9,677 bases of DNA from a virus (taxonomy: Duplodnaviria; Heunggongvirae; Uroviricota; Caudoviricetes), in the IMG/VR virus record IMGVR_UViG_2585427748_000017, positions 1-9,677 of that record; one strand, written 5' to 3'. Numbering within the stretch: the stretch's first letter is position 1; the number at the start of each line of letters is the position of its first letter. The notes beneath the pieces were generated by a model. The model did no database searches. It was given only the letters and a program-made list of their open reading frames with translations, and was not told the DNA's origin. This document shows, piece by piece, positions 1 through 9,677 of this stretch. The position numbers and the translations under genes were made by a program.

Positions 1-138
1 GTGTTTGATTTTAGCAAACTGATTCGGGAGATTCGAGTGATGGCTGAAAAATTATCCACCTGGAAGTTCATTCTTATCTGGCTGGTGTTTGTGATTATGG
101 CCTCCGGTTATTTCATCGGTCAGATACGCTGGTGGTGA
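1..138 (+). CDS. 3' end of an unidentified upstream gene (45 codons in window); C-terminal hydrophobic segment, stop 4 nt before Rz start
   Basis: Only frame 1 is open across 1-135 (frames 2 and 3 hit stops within the first 25 nt); stop TGA at 136-138 with Rz ATG at 140, suggesting translational coupling. Translation ...KLSTWKFILIWLVFVIMASGYFIGQIRWW ends in an approx 18-residue hydrophobic stretch. It does not resemble the C-terminus of lambda R or phage 21 R endolysin as I recall them. Function not assigned. Confidence 0.35.
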   Translation: MFDFSKLIREIRVMAEKLSTWKFILIWLVFVIMASGYFIGQIRWW

Positions 139-139
139 A

Positions 140-607
140 ATGAACCGCGTACTGTGCGTGGTCATCATTGCCCTGCTGGTGGCCTGTGGTGCGCTTAGTC
201 TGGGGCTGAATCATTACCGTGATAACGCCATAACCTACAAAGAGCAGCGCGATAAAAAAGTCAGTGAGCTGGAGCTGGCAAATGCAACCATTACTGATAT
301 GCAGCAGCGCCAGCGTGATGTTGCTGCACTTGATGCCAGATACTCGAGGGAATTAGCCGATGCGAGAGCTGAAAATGAAACTCTTCGCGCTGACGTTGCC
401 GCTGGTCACCGCAGCCTGCGGATCAACGCCACCTGTCCAGGTCCCGTGCGTGAAGCCACCGGCACCGCCCGCGTGGATAATGCAACCGGCCCCCAACTGG
501 CAGACACCGTTACACGGGATTATTTCACCCTCAGAGAGCGGCTGATGACGATGCAGAAGCAACTGGAAGGGGCACAGGACTATATCCGCACTCAGTGCCT
601 GAAATAA
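140..607 (+). CDS. Rz: Rz i-spanin (inner-membrane spanin subunit), lambda Rz homologue
   Basis: 155-aa ORF with N-terminal hydrophobic anchor (VLCVVIIALLVACGALSLGL) followed by NHYRDNAITYK...DMQQRQRDVAALDA...RDYFTLRERLMTMQKQLEG, which aligns along its length with lambda Rz as I recall it. Stop TAA 605-607. Contains an embedded +1-frame lipoprotein ORF (Rz1). Confidence 0.85.
   Translation: MNRVLCVVIIALLVACGALSLGLNHYRDNAITYKEQRDKKVSELELANATITDMQQRQRDVAALDARYSRELADARAENETLRADVAAGHRSLRINATCPGPVREATGTARVDNATGPQLADTVTRDYFTLRERLMTMQKQLEGAQDYIRTQCLK
360..545 (+). CDS. Rz1: Rz1 o-spanin (outer-membrane lipoprotein spanin subunit), fully embedded in Rz in another frame
   Basis: 61-aa ORF inside Rz: MRELKMKLFALTLPLVTAAC (signal peptide with lipobox-like TAAC) followed by a proline-rich mature part VKPPAPPAWIMQPAPNWQTPLHGIISPSESG, closely matching lambda Rz1 (…CVKPPPPPAWIMQPPPDWQTPLNGIISPSERG). 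Stop TGA 543-545. Confidence 0.8.
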   Translation: MRELKMKLFALTLPLVTAACGSTPPVQVPCVKPPAPPAWIMQPAPNWQTPLHGIISPSESG

Positions 608-957
608 GTTTTGCTGATGCGCGGTATTGTCGCCGTATCCCCGCATTAACAGAGACCGCAGCCCGACAGGGAGACTCCTCTGCGCGAGTGTGCGGGGATA
701 ATCAAAAACGATACACACCGGGGTTTACCGCGTTAACGGAGCGCGGCGTTGTCCCCTCATAGTCGCCTGTCCGGTGCGATGGTGGAAGAAGCCGGATGTT
801 TATCACTATTAATTGATGACACAGAAATGGATTCATTGAATTTCAGCACGTTTTTGTATTCGTGTTATTGAACATCTGTTTATTTTACTTTTAACATATT
901 GATAATAAAAAGAGCTGTAAATCTTTAGATGAGTCGATTTTGTCCGGGGAAGTTCAA

Positions 958-1098
958 ATGGATTTTATGCTGACGGTTTCTGGTGTGGTTATCCTGTCCA
1001 TTGCTTATACTGCAGATAAATATGGCTGCCATTTGTTATCACGTATTGGCGCTTATTGTTCGTTGATGCTGATTTTCTCGTCGCTTTTTTTTGAGTAA
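958..1098 (+). CDS. hypothetical small hydrophobic protein (46 aa), possible membrane peptide
   Basis: ATG at 958 preceded by GGGGA (945-949, 8-nt spacing); translation MDFMLTVSGVVILSIAYTADKYGCHLLSRIGAYCSLMLIFSSLFFE, stop TAA 1096-1098. Lies in an AT-rich island; candidate promoter TTGAAC (868-873) - 18 nt - TAACAT (892-897). Below the 60-aa cutoff of the supplied ORF track; coding status unproven. Confidence 0.3.
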   Translation: MDFMLTVSGVVILSIAYTADKYGCHLLSRIGAYCSLMLIFSSLFFE

Positions 1099-1230
1099 GT
1101 TATATTAATTATAACAAATAATTTTCTGTGTTATTTTTTCAGGCTATCCCGTCAGAGGGGAAGCCTGTACTGCCAGGGAGCGAATGGAAAACTGATGTGT
1201 CCGGTAACTGCGTGTTCTGTGAACACCATG

Positions 1231-1416
1231 TTACTTAATTATGTAATTCATACCCGAACTCTCTGTTGACAGCCTTCTTCTGCAGGCTTCAATAACCCAC
1301 GCTGAAAAGTTTCCTGAACCTTTCAGATCAAGAGCGATGTTAATTTGTTCAATCATCTGGTTTGGAAATCGGATGTTGCGGGTTGTTGTTCTGCGCGTTC
1401 TGTTTTTTGATGACAT
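1231..1416 (-). CDS. ylcI: small ribbon-helix-helix-like protein, YlcI-like (DUF3950 family) of DLP12-type prophages
   Basis: 61-aa minus-strand ORF MSSKNRTRRTTTRNIRFPNQMIEQINIALDLKGSGNFSAWVIEACRRRL..., with ATG at 1416-1414 and GGGGA 7 nt upstream on the minus strand. Basic N-terminus, short beta-strand (IRF), then two helices is the RHH pattern. Position immediately upstream of and divergent from cos/Nu1 matches ylcI-nohD in E. coli DLP12 as I recall it. Confidence 0.65.
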   Translation of the reverse strand: MSSKNRTRRTTTRNIRFPNQMIEQINIALDLKGSGNFSAWVIEACRRRLSTESSGMNYIIK

Positions 1417-1589
1417 AATGTTTCCCCATATTCAGTGTTGCTGATTTGTATTATCAGAAGTTGCTTTTACGTTAATTTGACGCAGATCAATTAATACGAT
1501 ACCTGCGTCATAATTGATTATTTCTCGTGGTTTGATGGCGTACACACATGTTGTGATAAACCTTATATAGATGATAATAATTATCATTT

Positions 1590-1850
1590 CGTGGGTCCTT
1601 TCCGGCGATCCGACCGGTTACGGGGCGGCGACCTCGCGCGTTTTCACTATTTATGAGATTTTTTGAGGGGGTGGTTGTTGTTTAATTGTTTGGTATATCT
1701 AATTGATAAGTAAGGTGAAAATAAAATAAATACAACAACCTTACGATGTGTTTTGATGTCGTCAATGCGAAAAATGTCAATGATATCAAATGGTTTTGCA
1801 AAAACACATGGTTGTTGTTTCGCTTTTTATCGATGACTTATGGAGAGGAG
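1590..1850. other. cos: cos packaging site: cosQ-side flank, cosN (12-nt cohesive end GGGCGGCGACCT at 1623-1634) and cosB region up to the Nu1 start
   Basis: Sequence ATAATTATCATTTCGTGGGTCCTTTCCGGCGATCCGACCGGTTACG|GGGCGGCGACCTCGCGCGTTTTCACTATTTATGA matches the lambda right-end/left-end junction nearly base for base (lambda: ...GGGTCCTTTCCGGCGATCCGACAGGTTACG|GGGCGGCGACCTCGCGGGTTTTCGCTATTTATGA). The downstream approx 215 bp before Nu1 carries direct repeats TGGTTGTTGTTT (1672-1683, 1809-1820) and GTCAATG (1761-1767, 1776-1782), candidate terminase/IHF binding elements. Confidence 0.85.
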
Positions 1851-2357
1851 ATGGCCTTTTTATTGAATAAAAGTGATATGGCCTCCTCCATCGGTATCTC
1901 TGTTCAGGCATTTGATAAATGGGGCGTTCCTCCTGTTGAACGTCGGGGGAGGGAAGTTTTATATGACGTTAAAACTGTACTGGAGATAGATCGCGAGCGG
2001 CGACAACACAATCAGAGAACACCTGATGACGGGGGAGAACTGGAGGAAAGGCTGCTTCGGGCCAGAGCTGAACTGACAGAAGAACAGGCTGTAGCTCAAA
2101 AACTTAAAAATCAGGTAACCGAAGGTAAGCTCATCGATTCAGACTTCTGCGTTTTCGCCCTCAGCAAACTGGCGATGGCATTGTCCAGTACGCTTGATTC
2201 CATTCCGTTATCCATGCAGCGACAGTTCCCGGATTTAACGCCACGTCATATTGACCATCTGAAAACCCTTATTGCAAAGGGCGCAAATCAGTGTGCGCGG
2301 GCAGGGGATAAATTACCGGATTTGCTGGATGAATATATCAGAGCAACAACTGAATAA
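1851..2357 (+). CDS. nu1: terminase small subunit (lambda gpNu1 homologue)
   Basis: ATG 1851 preceded by GGAGAGGAG. Translation MAFLLNKSDMASSIGISVQAFDKWGVPPVERRGREVLYD... aligns with lambda Nu1 (winged-HTH N-terminus, ...FALSKLA...LPLSMQRQFPDLTPRHIDHLK..., C-terminus LLDEYI). The 3' end overlaps the gpA start as in lambda. The ORF-track start at 1746 lies in cosB and is rejected. Confidence 0.85.
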   Translation: MAFLLNKSDMASSIGISVQAFDKWGVPPVERRGREVLYDVKTVLEIDRERRQHNQRTPDDGGELEERLLRARAELTEEQAVAQKLKNQVTEGKLIDSDFCVFALSKLAMALSSTLDSIPLSMQRQFPDLTPRHIDHLKTLIAKGANQCARAGDKLPDLLDEYIRATTE

Positions 2358-4257
2358 TATGGTGGCCGCCGTTTCGGTTGCGCTGCAGCCTCTGGTCAGG
2401 GTTGTACCGATGACGGCAGTTGAATGGGCTGACCAGTATTATTATCTGCCGAAAGAATCCTCATACGGTGACGGCGAATGGAAAACGCTGCCGTTCCAGA
2501 TCGCCATCATGAACAGTATGGGGAATGATCAGATCCGCACTGTTAATCTGATTAAATCTGCCCGTGTTGGCTATACAAAGATGTTGCTGGGAGTCGCCGG
2601 GTATTTTATTGAGCATAAATCCCGAAACAGTCTGCTTTTTCAGCCCACGGATTCTGCCGCTGAAGATTTTATGAAGTCTCACGTGGAGGCGACGATTCGG
2701 GACGTGCCATGCCTGAAAGATCTTTCCCCGTGGCTGGGTCGTAAACATCGTGACAATACTCTCACGCTGAAACGCTTTTCATCGGGGGTGGGCTTCTGGT
2801 GCCTGGGTGGTGCGGCAGCAAAAAACTACCGTGAAAAATCCGTGGACGTGGTCTGCTATGACGAACTTTCCTCGTTCGAGCCGGATGTCGAAAAAGAGGG
2901 CTCGCCAACCCTGCTGGGGGATAAGCGTATTGAGGGCTCGGTATGGCCAAAATCCATTCGCGGCTCGACGCCTAAAATAAAAGGCTCCTGCCAGATCGAA
3001 AAAGCGGCCAACGAGTCGGCGCATTTCATGCGTTTTTATGTGCCCTGCCCGCACTGTGGGGAGGCGCAGTATCTGAAATTTGGCGATGAGTCCACGCCTT
3101 TTGGCCTTAAATGGGAGAAGGACAGCCCCGAAAGCGTTTTCTACCTCTGTGAACATCATGGCTGCGTGATCCATCAGTCTGAGCTTGACCAGAGCAACGG
3201 GCGGTGGATCTGCGAAAACACGGGGATGTGGACCCGCGACGGTCTGACGTTTTTCAGCGCCGCGGATAATGAAATTCCGCCGCCGCGCTCCATCACATTC
3301 CATATCTGGACGGCGTACAGTCCGTTCACCACCTGGGTACAGATTGTCTATGACTGGCTGGATGCACTGAAAGATCCCAACGGCCTGAAAACCTTTGTGA
3401 ACACCACGCTGGGCGAGACCTGGGAAGAGGCCGTGGGCGAAAAACTCGATCACCAGGTACTGATGGATAAGGTTGTGCATTACACGGCGGCGGTGCCTGC
3501 CCGGGTGGTTTATCTGACGGCGGGCATTGACTCGCAGCGAAACCGTTTTGAGATGTATGTCTGGGGATGGGCACCGGGAGAGGAAGCTTTTCTGGTGGAT
3601 AAAATCATCATTATGGGCCGTCCCGATGAGGAAGAGACGCTGTTACGTGTGGATGCGGCGATCAACAAAAAATACTGCCATGCAGACGGAACCGAAATGA
3701 CCATTTCCCGTGTCTGCTGGGACACCGGGGGGATCGATGGTGAAATTGTCTATCAGAGGTCAAAAAAACACGGTGTTTTCCGGGTGCTGCCGGTAAAAGG
3801 CGCATCTGTCTATGGCAAGCCGGTGATCACCATGCCGAAAACCCGCAATCAGCGGGGCGTTTATCTGTGTGAAGTGGGGACGGACACCGCAAAAGAAATT
3901 CTCTATGCCCGTATGAAAGCCGAGCCCACGCCTGCGGATGAAGCCACGTCGTATGCCATCCGTTTTCCTGATGATCCGGAGATTTTTTCGCAGACAGAGG
4001 CGCAGCAACTGGTCGCGGAAGAGCTTGTGGAGAAGTGGGAAAAAGGAAAGATGCGTCTGCTGTGGGATAACAAAAAGCGGCGTAACGAAGCGCTGGACTG
4101 CCTGGTGTATGCCTACGCGGCATTACGTGTGTCCGTGCAACGCTGGCAGCTTGATCTGGCTGTACTGGCAAAATCCCGGGAAGAAGAGACGACCCGGCCA
4201 ACCCTTAAAGAACTGGCAGCGAAGCTGTCCGGAGGAGTGAATGGTTACAGTCGCTGA
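2329..4257 (+). CDS. A: terminase large subunit (lambda gpA homologue)
   Basis: Collinear with lambda gpA over the full length (TAVEWAD..YYLPKESSY, GFWCLGGAAAKNYREKSVDV, GDKRIEGSVWPKSIRGSTPK, CPHCGE.QYLKFGD, HIWTAYSPFTTWVQIV, CWDTGGID, KRRNEALDC, RWQLDL). ATG 2329 (MNISEQQ) corresponds to lambda MNISNSQ; the TTG at 2272 listed in the ORF track is an upstream artefact. Stop TGA 4255-4257. Confidence 0.95.
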   Translation: MNISEQQLNNMVAAVSVALQPLVRVVPMTAVEWADQYYYLPKESSYGDGEWKTLPFQIAIMNSMGNDQIRTVNLIKSARVGYTKMLLGVAGYFIEHKSRNSLLFQPTDSAAEDFMKSHVEATIRDVPCLKDLSPWLGRKHRDNTLTLKRFSSGVGFWCLGGAAAKNYREKSVDVVCYDELSSFEPDVEKEGSPTLLGDKRIEGSVWPKSIRGSTPKIKGSCQIEKAANESAHFMRFYVPCPHCGEAQYLKFGDESTPFGLKWEKDSPESVFYLCEHHGCVIHQSELDQSNGRWICENTGMWTRDGLTFFSAADNEIPPPRSITFHIWTAYSPFTTWVQIVYDWLDALKDPNGLKTFVNTTLGETWEEAVGEKLDHQVLMDKVVHYTAAVPARVVYLTAGIDSQRNRFEMYVWGWAPGEEAFLVDKIIIMGRPDEEETLLRVDAAINKKYCHADGTEMTISRVCWDTGGIDGEIVYQRSKKHGVFRVLPVKGASVYGKPVITMPKTRNQRGVYLCEVGTDTAKEILYARMKAEPTPADEATSYAIRFPDDPEIFSQTEAQQLVAEELVEKWEKGKMRLLWDNKKRRNEALDCLVYAYAALRVSVQRWQLDLAVLAKSREEETTRPTLKELAAKLSGGVNGYSR

Positions 4258-4447
4258 ACTACAGGCGCTGCGTCAGGCGCGCCTTGATTTATTAACCGGT
4301 AAACGGGTGGTGTCTGTCCAGAAAGATGGTCGCAGAATTGAATATACGGCGGCTTCTCTGGATGAGCTTAACCGGGCGATCAATGATGCGGAGTCGGTAC
4401 TGGGGACAACCCGACGTCGCCGTCGTCCGCTGGGAGTGAGGTTATGA
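4241..4447 (+). CDS. W: head-tail joining / head completion protein (lambda gpW homologue)
   Basis: 68-aa ORF with GGAGGAG 4 nt upstream. MVTVAELQALRQARLDLLTGKRVVSVQKDGRRIEYTAASLDEL... matches lambda gpW (…[27 protein letters not shown]…). Overlaps the gpA 3' end; stop TGA 4445-4447 overlaps the B start (ATGA). Confidence 0.85.
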   Translation: MVTVAELQALRQARLDLLTGKRVVSVQKDGRRIEYTAASLDELNRAINDAESVLGTTRRRRRPLGVRL

Positions 4448-6036
4448 AACGAACGCCTGTCCTGATTGATGTGAACGGCGTTCCGCTTCGTGAGAGTCTC
4501 AGCTACAACGGGGGCGGCGCAGGATTTGGCGGGCAAATGGCGGAGTGGTTGCCACCGGCGCAGAGTGCCGATGCGGCCCTGCTACCCGCGTTGCGTCTGG
4601 GGAATGCCCGGGCAGATGATCTGGTGCGCAATAACGGAATAGCGGCTAATGCGGTGGCTCTGCATAAGGATCACATTGTCGGGCATATGTTTCTGATCAG
4701 CTACCGTCCGAACTGGCGCTGGCTGGGGATGCGGGAGACCGCAGCAAAAAGTTTTGTCGATGAGGTGGAGGCGGCCTGGTCGGAATACGCCGAAGGGATG
4801 TTTGGTGAGATCGACGTGGAAGGAAAACGCACGTTCACGGAATTTATCCGTGAAGGTGTGGGCGTTCATGCGTTTAACGGCGAAATCTTTGTGCAGCCGG
4901 TCTGGGATACGGAGAGTACGCAACTGTTTCGTACGCGTTTTAAAGCCGTGAGTCCGAAACGGGTGGACACGCCTGGACACGGTATGGGGAACCGTTTTCT
5001 GCGGGCCGGTGTGGAGGTCGATCGATATGGCCGTGCCGTCGCGTACCATATTTGTGAGGACGATTTTCCGTTCTCTGGTAGTGGACGATGGGAACGGATC
5101 CCGCGTGAACTTCCCACCGGGCGTCCGGCCATGCTGCATATTTTCGAGCCGGTGGAGGACGGGCAGACCCGTGGAGCCAATCAGTTTTACAGCGTTATGG
5201 AACGGCTGAAGATGCTGGATTCCCTGCAGGCAACACAGCTTCAGTCGGCCATAGTGAAGGCGATGTATGCAGCGACGATTGAAAGTGAACTTGATACCGA
5301 AAAGGCCTTTGAATATATCGCCGGTGCGCCGCAGGGGCAGAAGGATAATCCGCTTATTAATATTCTGGATAAGTTCTCCACCTGGTATGACACGAATCAC
5401 GTGACGCTGGGCGGTGTCAAAATTCCGCACCTTTTCCCCGGTGATGATCTGAAACTTCAGACCGCGCAGGATTCAGACAATGGATTTTCGGCGCTTGAAC
5501 AGGCGCTGCTGCGGTATATCGCCGCCGGTCTTGGCGTTTCCTACGAACAGTTGTCCCGTGATTACTCGAAGGTCAGTTATTCAAGTGCCCGCGCCTCCGC
5601 CAATGAGTCGTGGCGCTATTTTATGGGGCGGCGAAAATTTATTGCGTCCCGGCTGGCCACGCAGATGTTTTCCTGCTGGCTGGAAGAGGCACTTCTTCGG
5701 GGGATTATTCGTCCGCCACGGGCACGGTTTGATTTTTATCAGGCGCGATCAGCCTGGTCACGGGCTGAGTGGATTGGAGCCGGAAGAATGGCCATTGACG
5801 GGCTCAAGGAGGTTCAGGAATCAGTGATGCGCATTGAGGCCGGACTGAGCACGTATGAGAAAGAGCTGGCGCTGATGGGCGAGGATTATCAGGACATTTT
5901 CCGCCAGCAGGTCAGGGAATCTGCAGAGCGGGAAAAAGCCGGACTCTCACGTCCGGTGTGGATAGCGCAGGCGTATCAGCAGCAGATAGCGGAGAGTCGC
6001 AGGCCGGAAGAGGAGACAACACCACGTGAGACGTAA
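4444..6036 (+). CDS. B: portal protein (lambda gpB homologue)
   Basis: 530-aa ORF collinear with lambda gpB ([140 protein letters not shown]). Confidence 0.95.
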
Positions 6037-7759
6037 TCTTTCACACATTATTGCCGCAGCATTCAATGAACCGCTGCTTCTGGAGCCCGCCTATGCGCGG
6101 GTTTTCTTTTGCGCGCTGGGGCGCGAGATGGGGGCAGCAAGTCTTTCGGTACCGCAACAGCAGGTACAGCTTGATGCTCCCGGAATGCTGGCTGAAACGG
6201 ACGAGTACATGGCCGGAGGTAAACGACCTGCCCGTGTTTACCGGGTGGTGAACGGTATTGCGGTACTGCCGATGAGCGGCACGCTGGTGCACCGGCTGGG
6301 GGGGATGCGGCCATTTTCCGGAATGACTGGCTATGACGGCATTGTCGCCTGTCTTCAGCAGGCAATGGCAGATAGCCAGGTGCGGGGCATACTGCTGGAC
6401 ATTGACAGTCCGGGCGGGCAGGCCGCCGGCGCGTTTGACTGCGCTGACATGATTTACCGCCTCCGTCAGCAGAAGCCGGTCTGGGCACTGTGCAATGACA
6501 CGGCCTGTTCTGCAGCCATGCTGCTGGCGTCGGCCTGCTCCCGACGGCTGGTTACCCAGACATCCCGTATCGGCTCCATTGGCGTGATGATGAGCCATGT
6601 CAGCTATGCCGGTCATCTGGCGCAGGCCGGTGTGGATATCACGCTGATTTATGCCGGGGCGCACAAGGTGGATGGCAATCAGTTTGAAGCGTTGCCGGCA
6701 GAGGTTCGCCAGGATATGCAGCAGCGGATTGATGCGGCGCACCGGATGTTTGCCGAAAAAGTGGCGATGTATACCGGGTTGTCTGTGGATGCGGTCACGG
6801 GAACAGAGGCCGCCGTTTTTGAAGGTCAGTCCGGCATTGAGGCCGGGCTGGCGGATGAATTAATCAATGCGTCGGATGCCATCAGTGTGATGGCCACGGC
6901 GCTGAACAGTAATGTCAGAGGAGGCACTATGCCGCAATTAACTGCAACGGAAGCCGCCGTGCAGGAGAACCAGCGAGTGATGGGGATCCTGACATGCCAG
7001 GAAGCGAAAGGACGTGAACAGCTTGCCACGATGCTGGCAGGGCAACAGGGCATGAGCGTTGAACAGGCCCGGGCGATTCTGGCCGCGGCGGCACCGCAGC
7101 AGCCGGTGGCATCCGCGCAGAGTGAAGCCGATCGCATTATGGCGTGTGAAGAAGCGAACGGTCGTGAACAACTGGCAGTAACGCTGGCGGCGATGCCGGA
7201 GATGACGGTGGAAAAAGCCCGCCCGATCCTGGCTGCTTCACCGCAGGCGAATGCCGGACCATCACTCCGTGATCAGATCATGGCCCTGGATGAGGCAAAA
7301 GGGGCTGAGGCGCAGGCTGAACAGCTGGCTGCCTGCCCGGGAATGACCGTGGAGAGCGCCCGGGCTGTGCTGGCTGCGGGATCAGGTACGGGGTCTGCCG
7401 GTGATCATACTCATGGTAATGGTATTCGTTGGCCAGGAGGCGGCGGTTCTGCGTTAGCATTTTATGATGGCGGTGGGTTCACTTATGTCCAGGATTCACA
7501 GTATCAAGTAAGCCCGGGGACTTCTTCCCGTAGATCGTATTATCAACGTATTCAGACACAGTCAGCAGGTGCTCATACCCACTCGCTGTCTGGTACTGCA
7601 GCAAGTTCTGGCGCACATGCACATACTGTAGGTATTGGTGCGCATACGCACTCCGTTGCGATTGGTTCACATGGACACACCATCACCGTTAACGCTGCTG
7701 GTAACGCGGAAAACACCGTCAAAAACATCGCATTTAACTATATTGTGAGGCTTGCATAA
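6026..7759 (+). CDS. C: chimeric ORF: gpC-like prohead protease (S49/SppA-type) with Nu3-like scaffold region, fused in frame near 7380-7400 to a side-tail-fibre (Stf-like) C-terminal His-box domain; likely a deletion remnant
   Basis: First approx 450 aa align with lambda gpC ([105 protein letters not shown], then the IMGIL..EA.GRE module). The last approx 125 aa (GDHTHGNG...[10 protein letters not shown]...[28 protein letters not shown]...[16 protein letters not shown]) carry repeated HxH motifs and the ending typical of lambdoid tail-fibre C-termini; the stop overlaps the tfa start (TAATG). GC content falls at the junction. The start is GTG 6026 (GAGGAG 10 nt upstream) overlapping the B stop; exact start uncertain. 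Confidence 0.75.
6929..7759 (+). CDS. nu3: nested in-frame internal start corresponding to lambda Nu3 scaffolding protein (here continuing into the fused tail-fibre domain)
   Basis: In-frame ATG 6929-6931 preceded by GAGGAGG (6918-6924) that is itself coding (R-G-G-T-M); this mirrors the lambda C/Nu3 arrangement (…SGGRM TKETQ…), where Nu3 starts inside C in the same frame. Expression not verifiable from sequence. Confidence 0.4.
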
Positions 7760-8343
7760 TGGCATTCAGAATGAGTGAACAAGCACGGACCATAAAAATT
7801 TATAATCTGCTGGCCGGAACTAATGAATTTATTGGTGAAGGTGACGCATATATTCCGCCTCATACAGGTCTGCCAGCAAACAGTACCGATATTGCACCAC
7901 CAGATATTCCTGCTGGCTTTGTGGCTGTTTTCAACAGTGATGAGGCATCGTGGCATCTCGTTGAAGACCATCGGGGTAAAACGGTTTATGACGTAGCGTC
8001 AGGGGACGAGTTATTTATTTCTGAACTCGGTCCGTTACCGGAAAATGTTACCTGGTTATCGCCGGAAGGGGAGTTTCAGAAGTGGAACGGCACAGCCTGG
8101 GTGAAGGATACGGAAGCAGAAAAAATGTTCCGGATCCGGGAGGCGGAAGAAACAAAAAACAACCTGATGCAGGTAGCCAGTGAGCATATTGCGCCGCTTC
8201 AGGATGCTGCAGATCTGGAAATTGCAACGGAGGAAGAAACCTCATTGCTGGAAGCCTGGAAAAAGTATCGGGTGTTGCTGAACCGTGTTGATACATCAAC
8301 TGCACCTGATATTGAGTGGCCTACGAACCCTGTCAGGGAGTAA
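7759..8343 (+). CDS. tfa: tail fibre assembly protein (Tfa; lambda Tfa / Mu U / T4 gp38 family)
   Basis: 194-aa [54 protein letters not shown]...[42 protein letters not shown], which I recognise as the Tfa proteins of E. coli lambdoid prophages. The start overlaps the upstream tail-fibre stop (TAATG), the usual stf-tfa coupling. Confidence 0.85.
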
Positions 8344-8391
8344 TCATTGGGATTATGCCGCAGCACGTCTTAAGCAAGAACGTGCTGCGGT
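8178..8391 (+). repeat. direct repeat copy A (tfa 3' end plus downstream hairpin); partner at 9227-9441
   Basis: By eye about 210 bp align between 8178-8391 and 9227-9441 at an offset of about 1049 bp with most positions identical, including the stop codon, TCATTGGGATTATGCCGCAG and the ACGTGCTGCGGTT hairpin arm. Exact identity not computed. Confidence 0.8.
8358..8390. other. perfect 11-bp inverted repeat (CCGCAGCACGT / ACGTGCTGCGG) with 11-nt loop, 15 nt after the tfa stop and 8 nt beyond the convergent methyltransferase stop; possible bidirectional terminator or recombination/junction element
   Basis: Left arm 8358-8368 and right arm 8380-8390 are exact reverse complements. A T6 run follows after a 10-nt gap on the + strand, so this is not a textbook intrinsic terminator. 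A near-identical copy with a 1-nt bulge occurs after the second tfa copy (9407-9440). Confidence 0.3.
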
Positions 8392-8397
8392 TGGATG

Positions 8398-9066
8398 CTA
8401 TTTTTTCCCTGAAGCGGAAAACATTACTACAGTACCTTGAACCTTGGTTTTAACATTCTCGAAATGCTCTGAGAGTATATGTGTTAAGCCTTCTTCGGAA
8501 TCTTTTGTGTTTGAAAAGATGCCTTTCTGATTGTAAATGCGCATCAGTTTTTGACCGAAGCTATTGTGCACAACTCCATCGCCAAGAATTGTGGCTCCGT
8601 ATAGAGTTCCATCGTCAGTTAAGGCCTGCGCCGCATTGCGTATTACACAGCTTTTTGTAGATATATTTCCAGGCAGGCAGTGAAGAAGGTAAAACATGGA
8701 AATGGAATCAAATTGACCATGTAACGCCGCGGGATAAGGTTCAAAAACATCATGGCTAATTTTATGTTTAATTTTTGATTCCCCAGCCCTTGTAGATGCC
8801 GCGTTCAGGCTAGCTTCGTTCAAATCCATTAAAGATATCAGACTACTCTCAGGTACGTGAGTAAGGTAAAACCCAGTTCCAACACCAATATCCAGATGGT
8901 TGTTACCTACATGTTCCAGAAAGTGTGGAAGAAGGTGTTCCTTTGTAGGACATCCCCATGCAAGCCGATTTGATACTCCCAAAACCCACCAGTCATAAAG
9001 CTTTAGGGTAAGTGGTGTGTAAATTTTAGCCCCATCATCTGTGTTTTTTTTCATTGATTTCACCAT
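8398..9066 (-). CDS. ybcY: class I SAM-dependent methyltransferase (Rossmann fold), YbcY-like prophage moron
   Basis: 222-aa minus-strand ORF with methyltransferase motif I LDIGVGTGFY, an acidic residue ending the next strand (SLMDLNE) and a motif II-like FDSISMFYLLHCLPG. No DPPY/NPPY motif, so not obviously a DNA N6-adenine methyltransferase. Visibly more AT-rich than the flanking tfa and head genes. The position between two tfa copies on the opposite strand matches tfaD-ybcY-tfaX in DLP12 as I recall it. The start may be the second ATG (9054, MKKNTDD) rather than 9066. Confidence 0.7.
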   Translation of the reverse strand: MVKSMKKNTDDGAKIYTPLTLKLYDWWVLGVSNRLAWGCPTKEHLLPHFLEHVGNNHLDIGVGTGFYLTHVPESSLISLMDLNEASLNAASTRAGESKIKHKISHDVFEPYPAALHGQFDSISMFYLLHCLPGNISTKSCVIRNAAQALTDDGTLYGATILGDGVVHNSFGQKLMRIYNQKGIFSNTKDSEEGLTHILSEHFENVKTKVQGTVVMFSASGKK

Positions 9067-9122
9067 GTTATAGTTTTATTTGTGAATTAAATCAATTATG
9101 GCGATGAATTACAAGGGGTTAA

Positions 9123-9392
9123 ATGCTGCCGCAGCATAGCGATATTGAAATAGCCTGGTATGCTTCGATACAGCAGGAGCCGAATGGCTGGAAGACCGTC
9201 ACCACACAGTTCTACATCCAGGAATTCAGTGAGTATATTGCGCCACTGCAGGATGCTGTAGATCTGGAAATCGCAACGGAGGAAGAAAGATCGTTGCTGG
9301 AGGCATGGAATAAATATCGGGTATTGTTGAATCGTGTTGATACATCAACTGCACCTGATATTGAGTGGCCTGCAAATCCTGTCAGGGAGTAA
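9123..9392 (+). CDS. tfaX: truncated tail fibre assembly protein copy (TfaX-like; C-terminal Tfa domain with unrelated 35-aa N-terminus)
   Basis: 89-aa ORF; the C-terminal 54 aa ([54 protein letters not shown]) are near-identical to the C-terminus of the 7759-8343 Tfa, while the N-terminus [35 protein letters not shown] is different. ATG 9123 with AAGGGG 4 nt upstream. Probably a remnant of a second tail-fibre cassette. Confidence 0.65.
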
Positions 9393-9441
9393 TCATTGGG
9401 ATTATGCCGCAGACACGTCGTATGCAGGAACGTGCTGCGGT
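9227..9441 (+). repeat. direct repeat copy B (tfaX 3' end plus downstream hairpin); partner at 8178-8391
   Basis: See copy A. The two copies bracket the opposite-strand methyltransferase gene. Confidence 0.8.
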
Positions 9442-9506
9442 TAGTTTGTGAGCTTTCGATAGTGGTTGTTATTTTTGCCCTTATTTGTTCCGGAGGCCAT
9501 GGTTCA

Positions 9507-9677
9507 ATGGTCCGTCTGCCCCCTGTGGTGATGTCAGCAAAATCAGCCACTGCGCGAACCACAATAGCCCGGGAAGATGCTGAAGATCACCAGGTAAAGC
9601 TATCAGCGCAGAAACTGGAAGAACTGCTCGCATCAATGGTTAAGGATGAGGTTGATCGCAATGATGGGATTTATTGA
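9507..9677 (+). CDS. hypothetical small protein (56 aa), charged and probably helical
   Basis: ATG 9507 with GGAGG (9493-9497) 9 nt upstream; translation MVRLPPVVMSAKSATARTTIAREDAEDHQVKLSAQKLEELLASMVKDEVDRNDGIY; stop TGA 9675-9677 at the window edge. The longer TTG-initiated ORF in the track (9396) starts inside the tfa repeat and is rejected. No family recognised. Confidence 0.35.
   Translation: MVRLPPVVMSAKSATARTTIAREDAEDHQVKLSAQKLEELLASMVKDEVDRNDGIY

Follow-up and report, generated by a model that had tools for sequence, protein, structure and literature searches.

In bacteriophage lambda, Nu3 is the scaffold and gpC is a protease whose C-terminal third is the Nu3 sequence. Phage 21 carries a gene pair of the same kind, genes 5 and 6, which encode the head-tail preconnector gp5 and the scaffold gp6, and the Salmonella phage Gifsy-1 has a gpC homologue, STM2605, that is about 61% identical over the scaffold region to the gene described here. 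We have analysed a stretch of 9,677 nucleotides from a virus of the Caudoviricetes (IMG/VR record IMGVR_UViG_2585427748_000017, positions 1 to 9,677; hereafter the window), which is the late region of a lambdoid prophage and in which the open reading frame (ORF) 6026-7759 holds a further copy of this gene pair with three consecutive, related modules of 38-42 residues. Judging by their sequence, these modules are the repeats already known as the Tri boxes of phage 21, and the ORF that carries them in the window is a fusion left behind by a large deletion.

Like lambda gpC/gpNu3, the window type combines an S49 protease domain with a scaffold gene nested in frame, and the gene order, Nu1, A, W, B, C/Nu3, D, E, is the same. 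The lambda module is homologous to those of the window (63% identical to copy 1), and so is the lambda tail, which starts with a (S/T)xTA(L/M)xxxM motif. Lambda has one module after a Ser/Thr/Ala-rich linker of about 50 residues, whereas the phage 21 type has three modules behind a lead-in of about 15 residues, and lambda Nu3 counts 131 residues against 200 for phage 21 gp6. A preliminary description of the window, made from its letters alone, had quoted a single module for lambda gpC; KT232076.1 contains exactly that sequence, once, at residues 360-400. With phage 21 the window shares the nested start, its ribosome-binding site and the three repeats at the same positions: the gpC part of the ORF is identical to gp5 at 443 of 454 residues (98%) with no gaps, and the Nu3-like part shares 97% of its residues with gp6. 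Unlike the phage 21 gene, the window copy has a tail-fibre C-terminus in place of the last 47 residues (KAEPVS...MLMAMP), and its setting is not a phage but a defective prophage beside ompW and the trp operon.

The assignment of the ORF to this gene type rests on its domains and on its place in the head operon. The S49 domain PF01343 is matched at residues 146-293 (Pfam, 123 bits against a cut-off of 24.9, E=1.4e-35), and the ORF matches phrog_53, head maturation protease, at E=7e-203. It comes after Nu1, A, W and the portal gene, its start at 6026 overlapping the portal stop at 6036, and the same gene order is found in a closely related three-copy prophage (L001), in ev017 and in phage 21. 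The translation of 6929-7385 is exactly the sequence that the preliminary description had presented as three tandem segments, and the segments are significantly alike: local alignment with BLOSUM62 gave pairwise scores of 101, 83 and 90 against shuffle means of 21-25 (z = 17.8, 11.8 and 15.7), and none of the 2000 shuffles per pair scored as high as the observed value. These shuffle controls rule out a chance or low-complexity likeness of Ala-rich sequence. Sixteen columns are invariant across the three window copies, and phrog_8399, a single-copy PHROG profile of head scaffolding protein, matches three separate stretches of the ORF. A hidden Markov model (HMM) of the module, 39 positions long and built from the three window copies and the lambda copy, scores 74, 78 and 71 bits on copies 1, 2 and 3 of P0083, the 577-residue protein itself, values that are partly circular since the window copies are among the training sequences. 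The copies had also been described as diverged at the DNA level, and they are: pairwise identity is 65%, 52% and 56%, and the same codon is used in less than half of the amino-acid columns that are identical between copies. Tandem Repeats Finder found no repeat of the module period in the DNA, only an 18-nt micro-repeat coding for Ala and Pro, a null result that fits an old divergence of the copies.

What had escaped the preliminary description, besides the nature of the ORF as a deletion fusion, is the prior annotation of these repeats. The record of the phage 21 head operon, M81255.1, marks three stretches of gene 6 (the Nu3 analogue, which lies within gene 5) as repeat_region features, under the labels 'Tri1 box', 'Tri box' and 'Tri3 box' and with the remark 'function unknown; putative'. 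Translated, the three boxes equal window modules 1-3 except for two substitutions, so that the boxes are the three segments and the repeat finding is the rediscovery of a known feature. The Nu3-like start placed upstream of the repeats stands as well: an in-frame ATG at 6929, with a GAGGAGG ribosome-binding site 5 nt upstream, lies in the last third of the protease gene and is predicted from the sequence to be the scaffold start, and both elements coincide with the start and the ribosome-binding site annotated for gene 6 in M81255.1. The source paper of this record is presumably Smith and Feiss 1993 in Gene. In the literature on gpNu3, Tri boxes and phage 21 head genes we found no accessible paper on the repeats, and neither Pfam nor NCBIfam has a family for the module. 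GenBank has carried the repeat for phage 21 since the early 1990s, and the window offers a 97-98% identical copy of it in a dead fusion gene; the finding is correct, but ordinary and of small discovery value.

Fusion to a tail fibre gene

The junction was aligned against an intact gpC (L001) and an intact side tail fibre gene (CP025907.1, L007). Homology of the window to intact gpC genes ends at 7388-7391, which is also where the matches to the window in complete E. coli genomes (up to 98% identity) break off. Intact relatives continue after module 3 with KAEPVSASTT...MLMAMP; in the window those last 47 residues are replaced, and residues 455-577 match phrog_295 and phrog_2097, tail fiber protein. 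Other phages annotate the distal sequence as side tail fiber and tail fiber assembly protein, and the distal part of the window is 99.5% identical in DNA to positions 19275-20226 of phage 204576 (CP025907.1), which hold the side tail fibre and the tail-fibre assembly gene (tfa). In phage 204576 the two sides of the junction lie about 17.3 kb apart, the fibre part being downstream of the gpC modules. At the junction, only 'TA' is common to both parental sequences. As read from these alignments, the ORF 6026-7759 is an in-frame fusion produced by a deletion of about 17 kb that joined module 3 to the C-terminus of a tail fibre, and the same deletion took away the scaffold tail, D and E of the head genes, and the whole set of tail genes. 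Since the scaffold tail and the remaining head and tail genes are gone, the window ORF cannot function as a scaffold gene. The window does not hold a functional head module: the C-terminus of the protease is incomplete, and D, E and all tail genes are absent from it.

The same 577-residue protein is encoded on the E. coli contig JORO01000073.1 (L006, 10108-17878), where the prophage remnant stops at a truncated ompW with a 38-residue product and adjoins ompW, yciEFG (yciE, yciF and yciG) and the trp operon (trpABCDE). Among the complete E. coli genomes of the collection, none matched at least 80% of the window at one place.

It is worth adding that the breakpoint is met elsewhere. A second fusion, P0084 (L008, 721 residues), breaks gpC at the same nucleotide, reading GGATCAGGTA and then TCCGATTTG, and joins it to a different tail-fibre C-terminus; the distal breakpoint of P0084 recurs, at the same nucleotide, in NZ_CP098223.1, where its partner is a truncated gene for the major capsid protein. 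The crossover falls on TA in each of the four parental sites, and a Pin-like recombinase gene lies near the breakpoints in L008, L014 and L015. A search for inverted repeats of the breakpoint sequence, and for a gix/hix-like site in the neighbourhood of the Pin-like recombinase gene, was negative. That independent fusions of gpC, capsid and tail-fibre genes (window, L008 and L014) reuse the same TA breakpoints may point to deletion by a recombinase, and not to random illegitimate recombination, as a force that shapes defective lambdoid prophages.

Age, copy number and predicted fold

The triplication had been taken for an old expansion, and this view is borne out by the 52-65% DNA identity between copies and by their positional orthology with Gifsy-1. 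STM2605 has three modules in the same order, each closest to the window module of the same position: identity is 74, 79 and 58% between modules of equal position and 45-58% between modules of different position. Gifsy-1 and P0121 likewise match best position by position (81, 68 and 76%). Such position-wise orthology between the window and Gifsy-1 means that the triplication is older than the split of these lineages. In the phage collection, a protein search with the 153-residue region returned 20 records in which 80% or more of the query is matched, among them phage 21, ev017, 4A7, D2, 1W, 3W, several PhiR phages and Gifsy-1.

Over a wider range, searching 1.84 billion representative proteins with a profile yielded 467 matches at E <= 0.001, and among the best 150 of these the module is present once in 133 proteins, twice in 12 and three times in 5, so that one copy is the common state. 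Multi-copy forms arose more than once, as seen from near-identical recent duplicates (P0129, P0131 and P0132) and from distant two-copy proteins (P0149 and P0268). A word-indexed protein search with a 46-residue module profile gave no more than 18 matches, all of them short E. coli fragments. In most cases, the single-copy full-length proteins carry a tail of 39-57 residues after the module; in single-copy homologues, what follows the module aligns with the beginning of copy 2. The tail motif itself (SDTALDRLM in lambda, STTAMFEHFM in phage 21) is similar to EADRIM and LRDQIM, with which copies 2 and 3 begin. These likenesses suggest that the duplications arose by unequal exchange between such short helix-coding motifs.

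Alignment to homologues, which the preliminary description had proposed as a check, shows that copy number does vary, with 2, '2.5', 3 and 4 copies among close E. coli relatives, and every E. coli variant is explained by unequal recombination between copies, with breakpoints inside the copies. The alleles of 451 and 435 residues have two copies, a copy 1/copy 2 hybrid followed by copy 3; that of 472 residues stands between two and three copies through another copy 1/2 junction; that of 501 residues is the three-copy phage 21 form; and that of 551 residues has four, the extra one from a copy 3/copy 2 junction. The 482-residue allele (P0012, L011 9001-10449), compared with L001 10024-11529, is the '2.5'-copy form: 57 nt have been deleted from within copy 2, with an 8-nt direct repeat, CTGGCGGC, at the ends of the deletion, and half a module is left. 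It is also the most widespread allele, listed in 3592 index blocks, and the prophages that have it carry complete lambda-type head and tail gene sets. A separate case is P0001 (657 residues, on a 5.59-Mb E. coli contig), in which a 156-residue internal tandem duplication covers the end of the protease domain and the modules and yields six module matches; this duplication could be real or an assembly artefact.

The structure prediction, also suggested by the preliminary description, was made with AlphaFold2 on P0060, an intact 501-residue relative, from an alignment of 117 sequences (mean pLDDT 85, pTM 0.60). Each module is modelled as a compact three-helix unit with a pLDDT of 88-96: the predicted helices are 307-322, 331-338 and 345-354 in module 1 (pLDDT 92-96), 367-373, 381-389 and 395-404 in module 2 (92-95), and 414-419, 428-436 and 442-453 in module 3 (88-95). 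The predicted linkers reach about 60-80 and the last 45 or so residues fall below 60, so linkers and C-terminal tail are predicted to be flexible. Modelled alone, module 1 reaches a pLDDT of 94.7, and the module is confidently predicted to be an autonomous three-helix unit. Ten positions are near-invariant over the 117 diverse sequences (I321, E326, A327, G329, R330, A334, L337, A338, A348 and L352), and in the model they would form the hydrophobic core and an exposed EAxGRE turn. Measured against these homologues, copy 3 of the window has lost the near-invariant Arg of that motif, reading GAE instead of GRE; in Gifsy-1, copy 3 retains GRE and copy 1 has GHE. Such losses of Arg in single copies hint that the constraint on individual copies is relaxed.

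The same fold was recovered at the C-termini of other phage S49 proteases (TM 0.88-0.89). No specifically related solved structure was found, and a sequence search of the Protein Data Bank (PDB) returned only chance-level matches to the Lac repressor. The tandem three-helix-bundle binders of staphylococcal protein A and the albumin-binding GA modules offer a structural analogy only: with identity of 4-18% and Z below 5, this is a generic fold likeness, which is no sign of homology or of a common binding partner.

Possible roles of the modules

The reading we favour, and consider probable as a whole, is that the window holds a phage 21-type C/Nu3 gene pair with three interaction modules, here preserved as a relic. 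The C-terminal third of the gp5 protease would be made separately as the scaffold gp6 from the internal start at 6929, and the module would be a folded interaction domain shared by the scaffold and by the tail that targets the protease, keeping both inside the growing shell, with the major capsid protein, further scaffold molecules or the two together as its binding partners. The module is the sole confidently folded element of the scaffold and is conserved in many S49 protease/scaffold proteins, and it is on these grounds that we infer for it the role of interaction domain. In lambda, a yeast two-hybrid study reported Nu3-E, Nu3-Nu3 and Nu3-C interactions (PMC3224144). A role analogous to that of the P22 scaffold seems plausible: near its C-terminus P22 has a small helical domain, a helix-turn-helix believed to anchor the scaffold on the capsid protein (PMC11922011). 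This coat-binding domain is a functional analogue only, with no sequence or detectable fold relation to the module; P22 has one copy of it, a basic two-helix hairpin, whereas the window has three copies of an acidic three-helix unit. With three such units on flexible linkers each chain would presumably be trivalent, and trivalency would raise avidity and leave the T=7 lattice unchanged; the copies being equivalent beads, the gain or loss of one would be tolerated.

Several observations weigh against so active a role for all three copies. The commonest allele, that of 482 residues, has a broken second module, and copy 3 is without its near-invariant Arg; either may be a sign that the extra copies contribute little. 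Gaps of the kind that the 2-, 2.5- or 4-copy alleles would give are absent from the alignments of all 20 phage records whose match spans 80% or more of the three-module query, and the remaining phage records listed match in the manner of single-copy lambda-type genes. It is possible, if somewhat unlikely, that the extra copies are nearly neutral passengers: one module would suffice, copies 2 and 3 would serve at most as spacer, and their number would drift by unequal recombination. The prevalence of a single copy among the best 150 matches, the coexistence of 2, 2.5, 3 or 4 copies in close relatives, the loss of half of copy 2 from the most widespread allele, and the state of copy 3, which is without its Arg and of the three has the lowest identity to its Gifsy-1 counterpart (58% against 74% and 79%), are all in keeping with such drift. 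Against it, three copies are still recognisable and confidently foldable across lineages that are about 61% identical in the scaffold region, which would be unexpected if they were purely neutral; the hydrophobic core positions are retained in every copy; and it is the three-copy genes that are met in isolated phages. As it stands, the view that copies 2 and 3 add little and the view of a trivalent scaffold are roughly equally viable.

We consider it rather unlikely that the module is a self-association domain of the scaffold and not a binder of the capsid protein, its tandem copies replacing or strengthening the Nu3-Nu3 contacts of the scaffold core. Nu3-Nu3 and C-Nu3 interactions are known in lambda (PMC3224144), and the module, as the only part of the scaffold that folds with confidence, is a candidate for any known interaction. 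Against self-association, the AlphaFold2 model shows no confident packing between modules, with linkers of lower confidence and a pTM of 0.60, and the same two-hybrid study found the Nu3-E interaction; the present observations fit either option.

It is tempting to go further and to regard module number as a tunable valency knob: unequal recombination may keep making 1- to 4-copy alleles, and selection may fit the avidity of the scaffold to variants of the capsid protein. Taken jointly with the recombinase-driven deletion route at TA breakpoints, this is an improbable account of the locus. If the knob were real, module number would measurably alter the rate or the fidelity of procapsid assembly. 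The natural 1- to 4-copy alleles make a ready-made series with which to ask what the scaffold domain of lambda-type phages binds and how valency affects procapsid assembly. A further use of the finding is a predicted autonomous three-helix domain that is common to many S49 prohead protease/scaffold proteins and is without a Pfam or NCBIfam model.

The part of the preliminary description that did not stand is its suggestion that expansion of the module might reflect a different capsid geometry; the old, diverged triplication after a Nu3-like start and the single copy of lambda stood. That the expansion marks a different capsid size or geometry in the phage lineage has in its favour only the general rule that scaffolds take part in determining capsid size. 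The three-copy phages (21, ev017, 4A7, D2, 1W, 3W, the PhiR phages and Gifsy-1) have genomes of 42.9-54 kb, near that of lambda; L001 encodes a major capsid protein that shares 60% identity with lambda gpE and has about its length, and a decoration protein that shares 57% with lambda gpD; and the 2- to 4-copy alleles adjoin the same type of capsid gene. The phage 21 protein SHP, moreover, is able to bind lambda capsids and to substitute there for gpD, as stated in a passage of PMC7602432 that cites Wendt and Feiss 2004. On genome size, on the identity of capsid and decoration proteins and on the decoration of lambda capsids by SHP we reject a change of geometry as very improbable.

Equally far-fetched is a reading of the modules as helix-hairpin-helix (HhH) motifs that sense or contact incoming DNA, suggested by a PGMTVExARxILAA pattern resembling the HhH hairpin and by a Pfam HHH match (PF00633) on copy 3 (18.5 bits, E=0.0017), which we reject because that match is under the cut-off of 24, copies 1 and 2 give none, the modules are acidic (net charge -1 to -3, pI 4.4-5.1; the whole scaffold -11), and in lambda the scaffold is removed before or during packaging.

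Gene context of the window

The features of the window, together with the breakpoint regions in the related loci, are collected in the table.

Features of the window and breakpoint regions of the compared loci (coordinates are those of the window unless a locus is named)
Feature	Coordinates	Strand	Remarks
Rz	140-607		lysis gene
Nu1-type small terminase			before large terminase
Large terminase	ends 4257
gpW	4241-4447
Portal	4444-6036
Fusion ORF	6026-7759	+	577 residues
gpC / phage 21 gp5-type S49 prohead protease and scaffold domain	6026-7389	+	residues 1-454 of normally 501
Shine-Dalgarno GAGGAGG (6918-6924) and ATG (6929)	6918-6931	+	nested in-frame scaffold gene (predicted start)
Module 1 (Tri1 box)	6944-7099	+	residues 307-358; HMM match 317-358 (6974-7099); long helix 1, EAKGRE turn, helix 2, QGMS loop, helix 3 (predicted)
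Module 2 (Tri box 2)	7121-7246	+	residues 366-407; HMM match 370-407 (7133-7246)
Module 3 (Tri3 box)	7262-7387	+	residues 413-454; HMM match 417-454 (7274-7387)
Deletion junction	7389-7390	+	gpC ...GGATCAGGTA then tail fibre CGGGGTCTGCC
Side tail fibre C-terminus	7390-7759	+	123 residues, GAHTHS repeats; in frame with gpC; not scaffold
Breakpoint region, window	7380-7400
Breakpoint region, L008	5350-5380
Breakpoint region, L014	2990-3005
Breakpoint region, L015	2490-2510
Tail-fibre assembly gene (tfa)	7759-8343		next gene after the fusion ORF
Methyltransferase gene	8398-9066	-
Second tfa, partial	9123-9392

Two further observations concern the flanks of the late region. Downstream of the fusion, the 3' ends of the full and the partial tfa form a 197-nt direct repeat, 89% identical (8167-8363 and 9216-9412), which flanks the minus-strand SAM-methyltransferase gene; we take this tfa-methyltransferase-tfa arrangement to resemble tfaD-ybcY-tfaX of the DLP12 prophage. 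At the other end, an ORF on the plus strand at 360-545, which starts MRELKMKLFALTLPLVTAACGS, lies in another frame inside Rz, and its product looks, from the sequence, like a lipoprotein signal with a lipobox, as expected of an Rz1-type embedded spanin gene.

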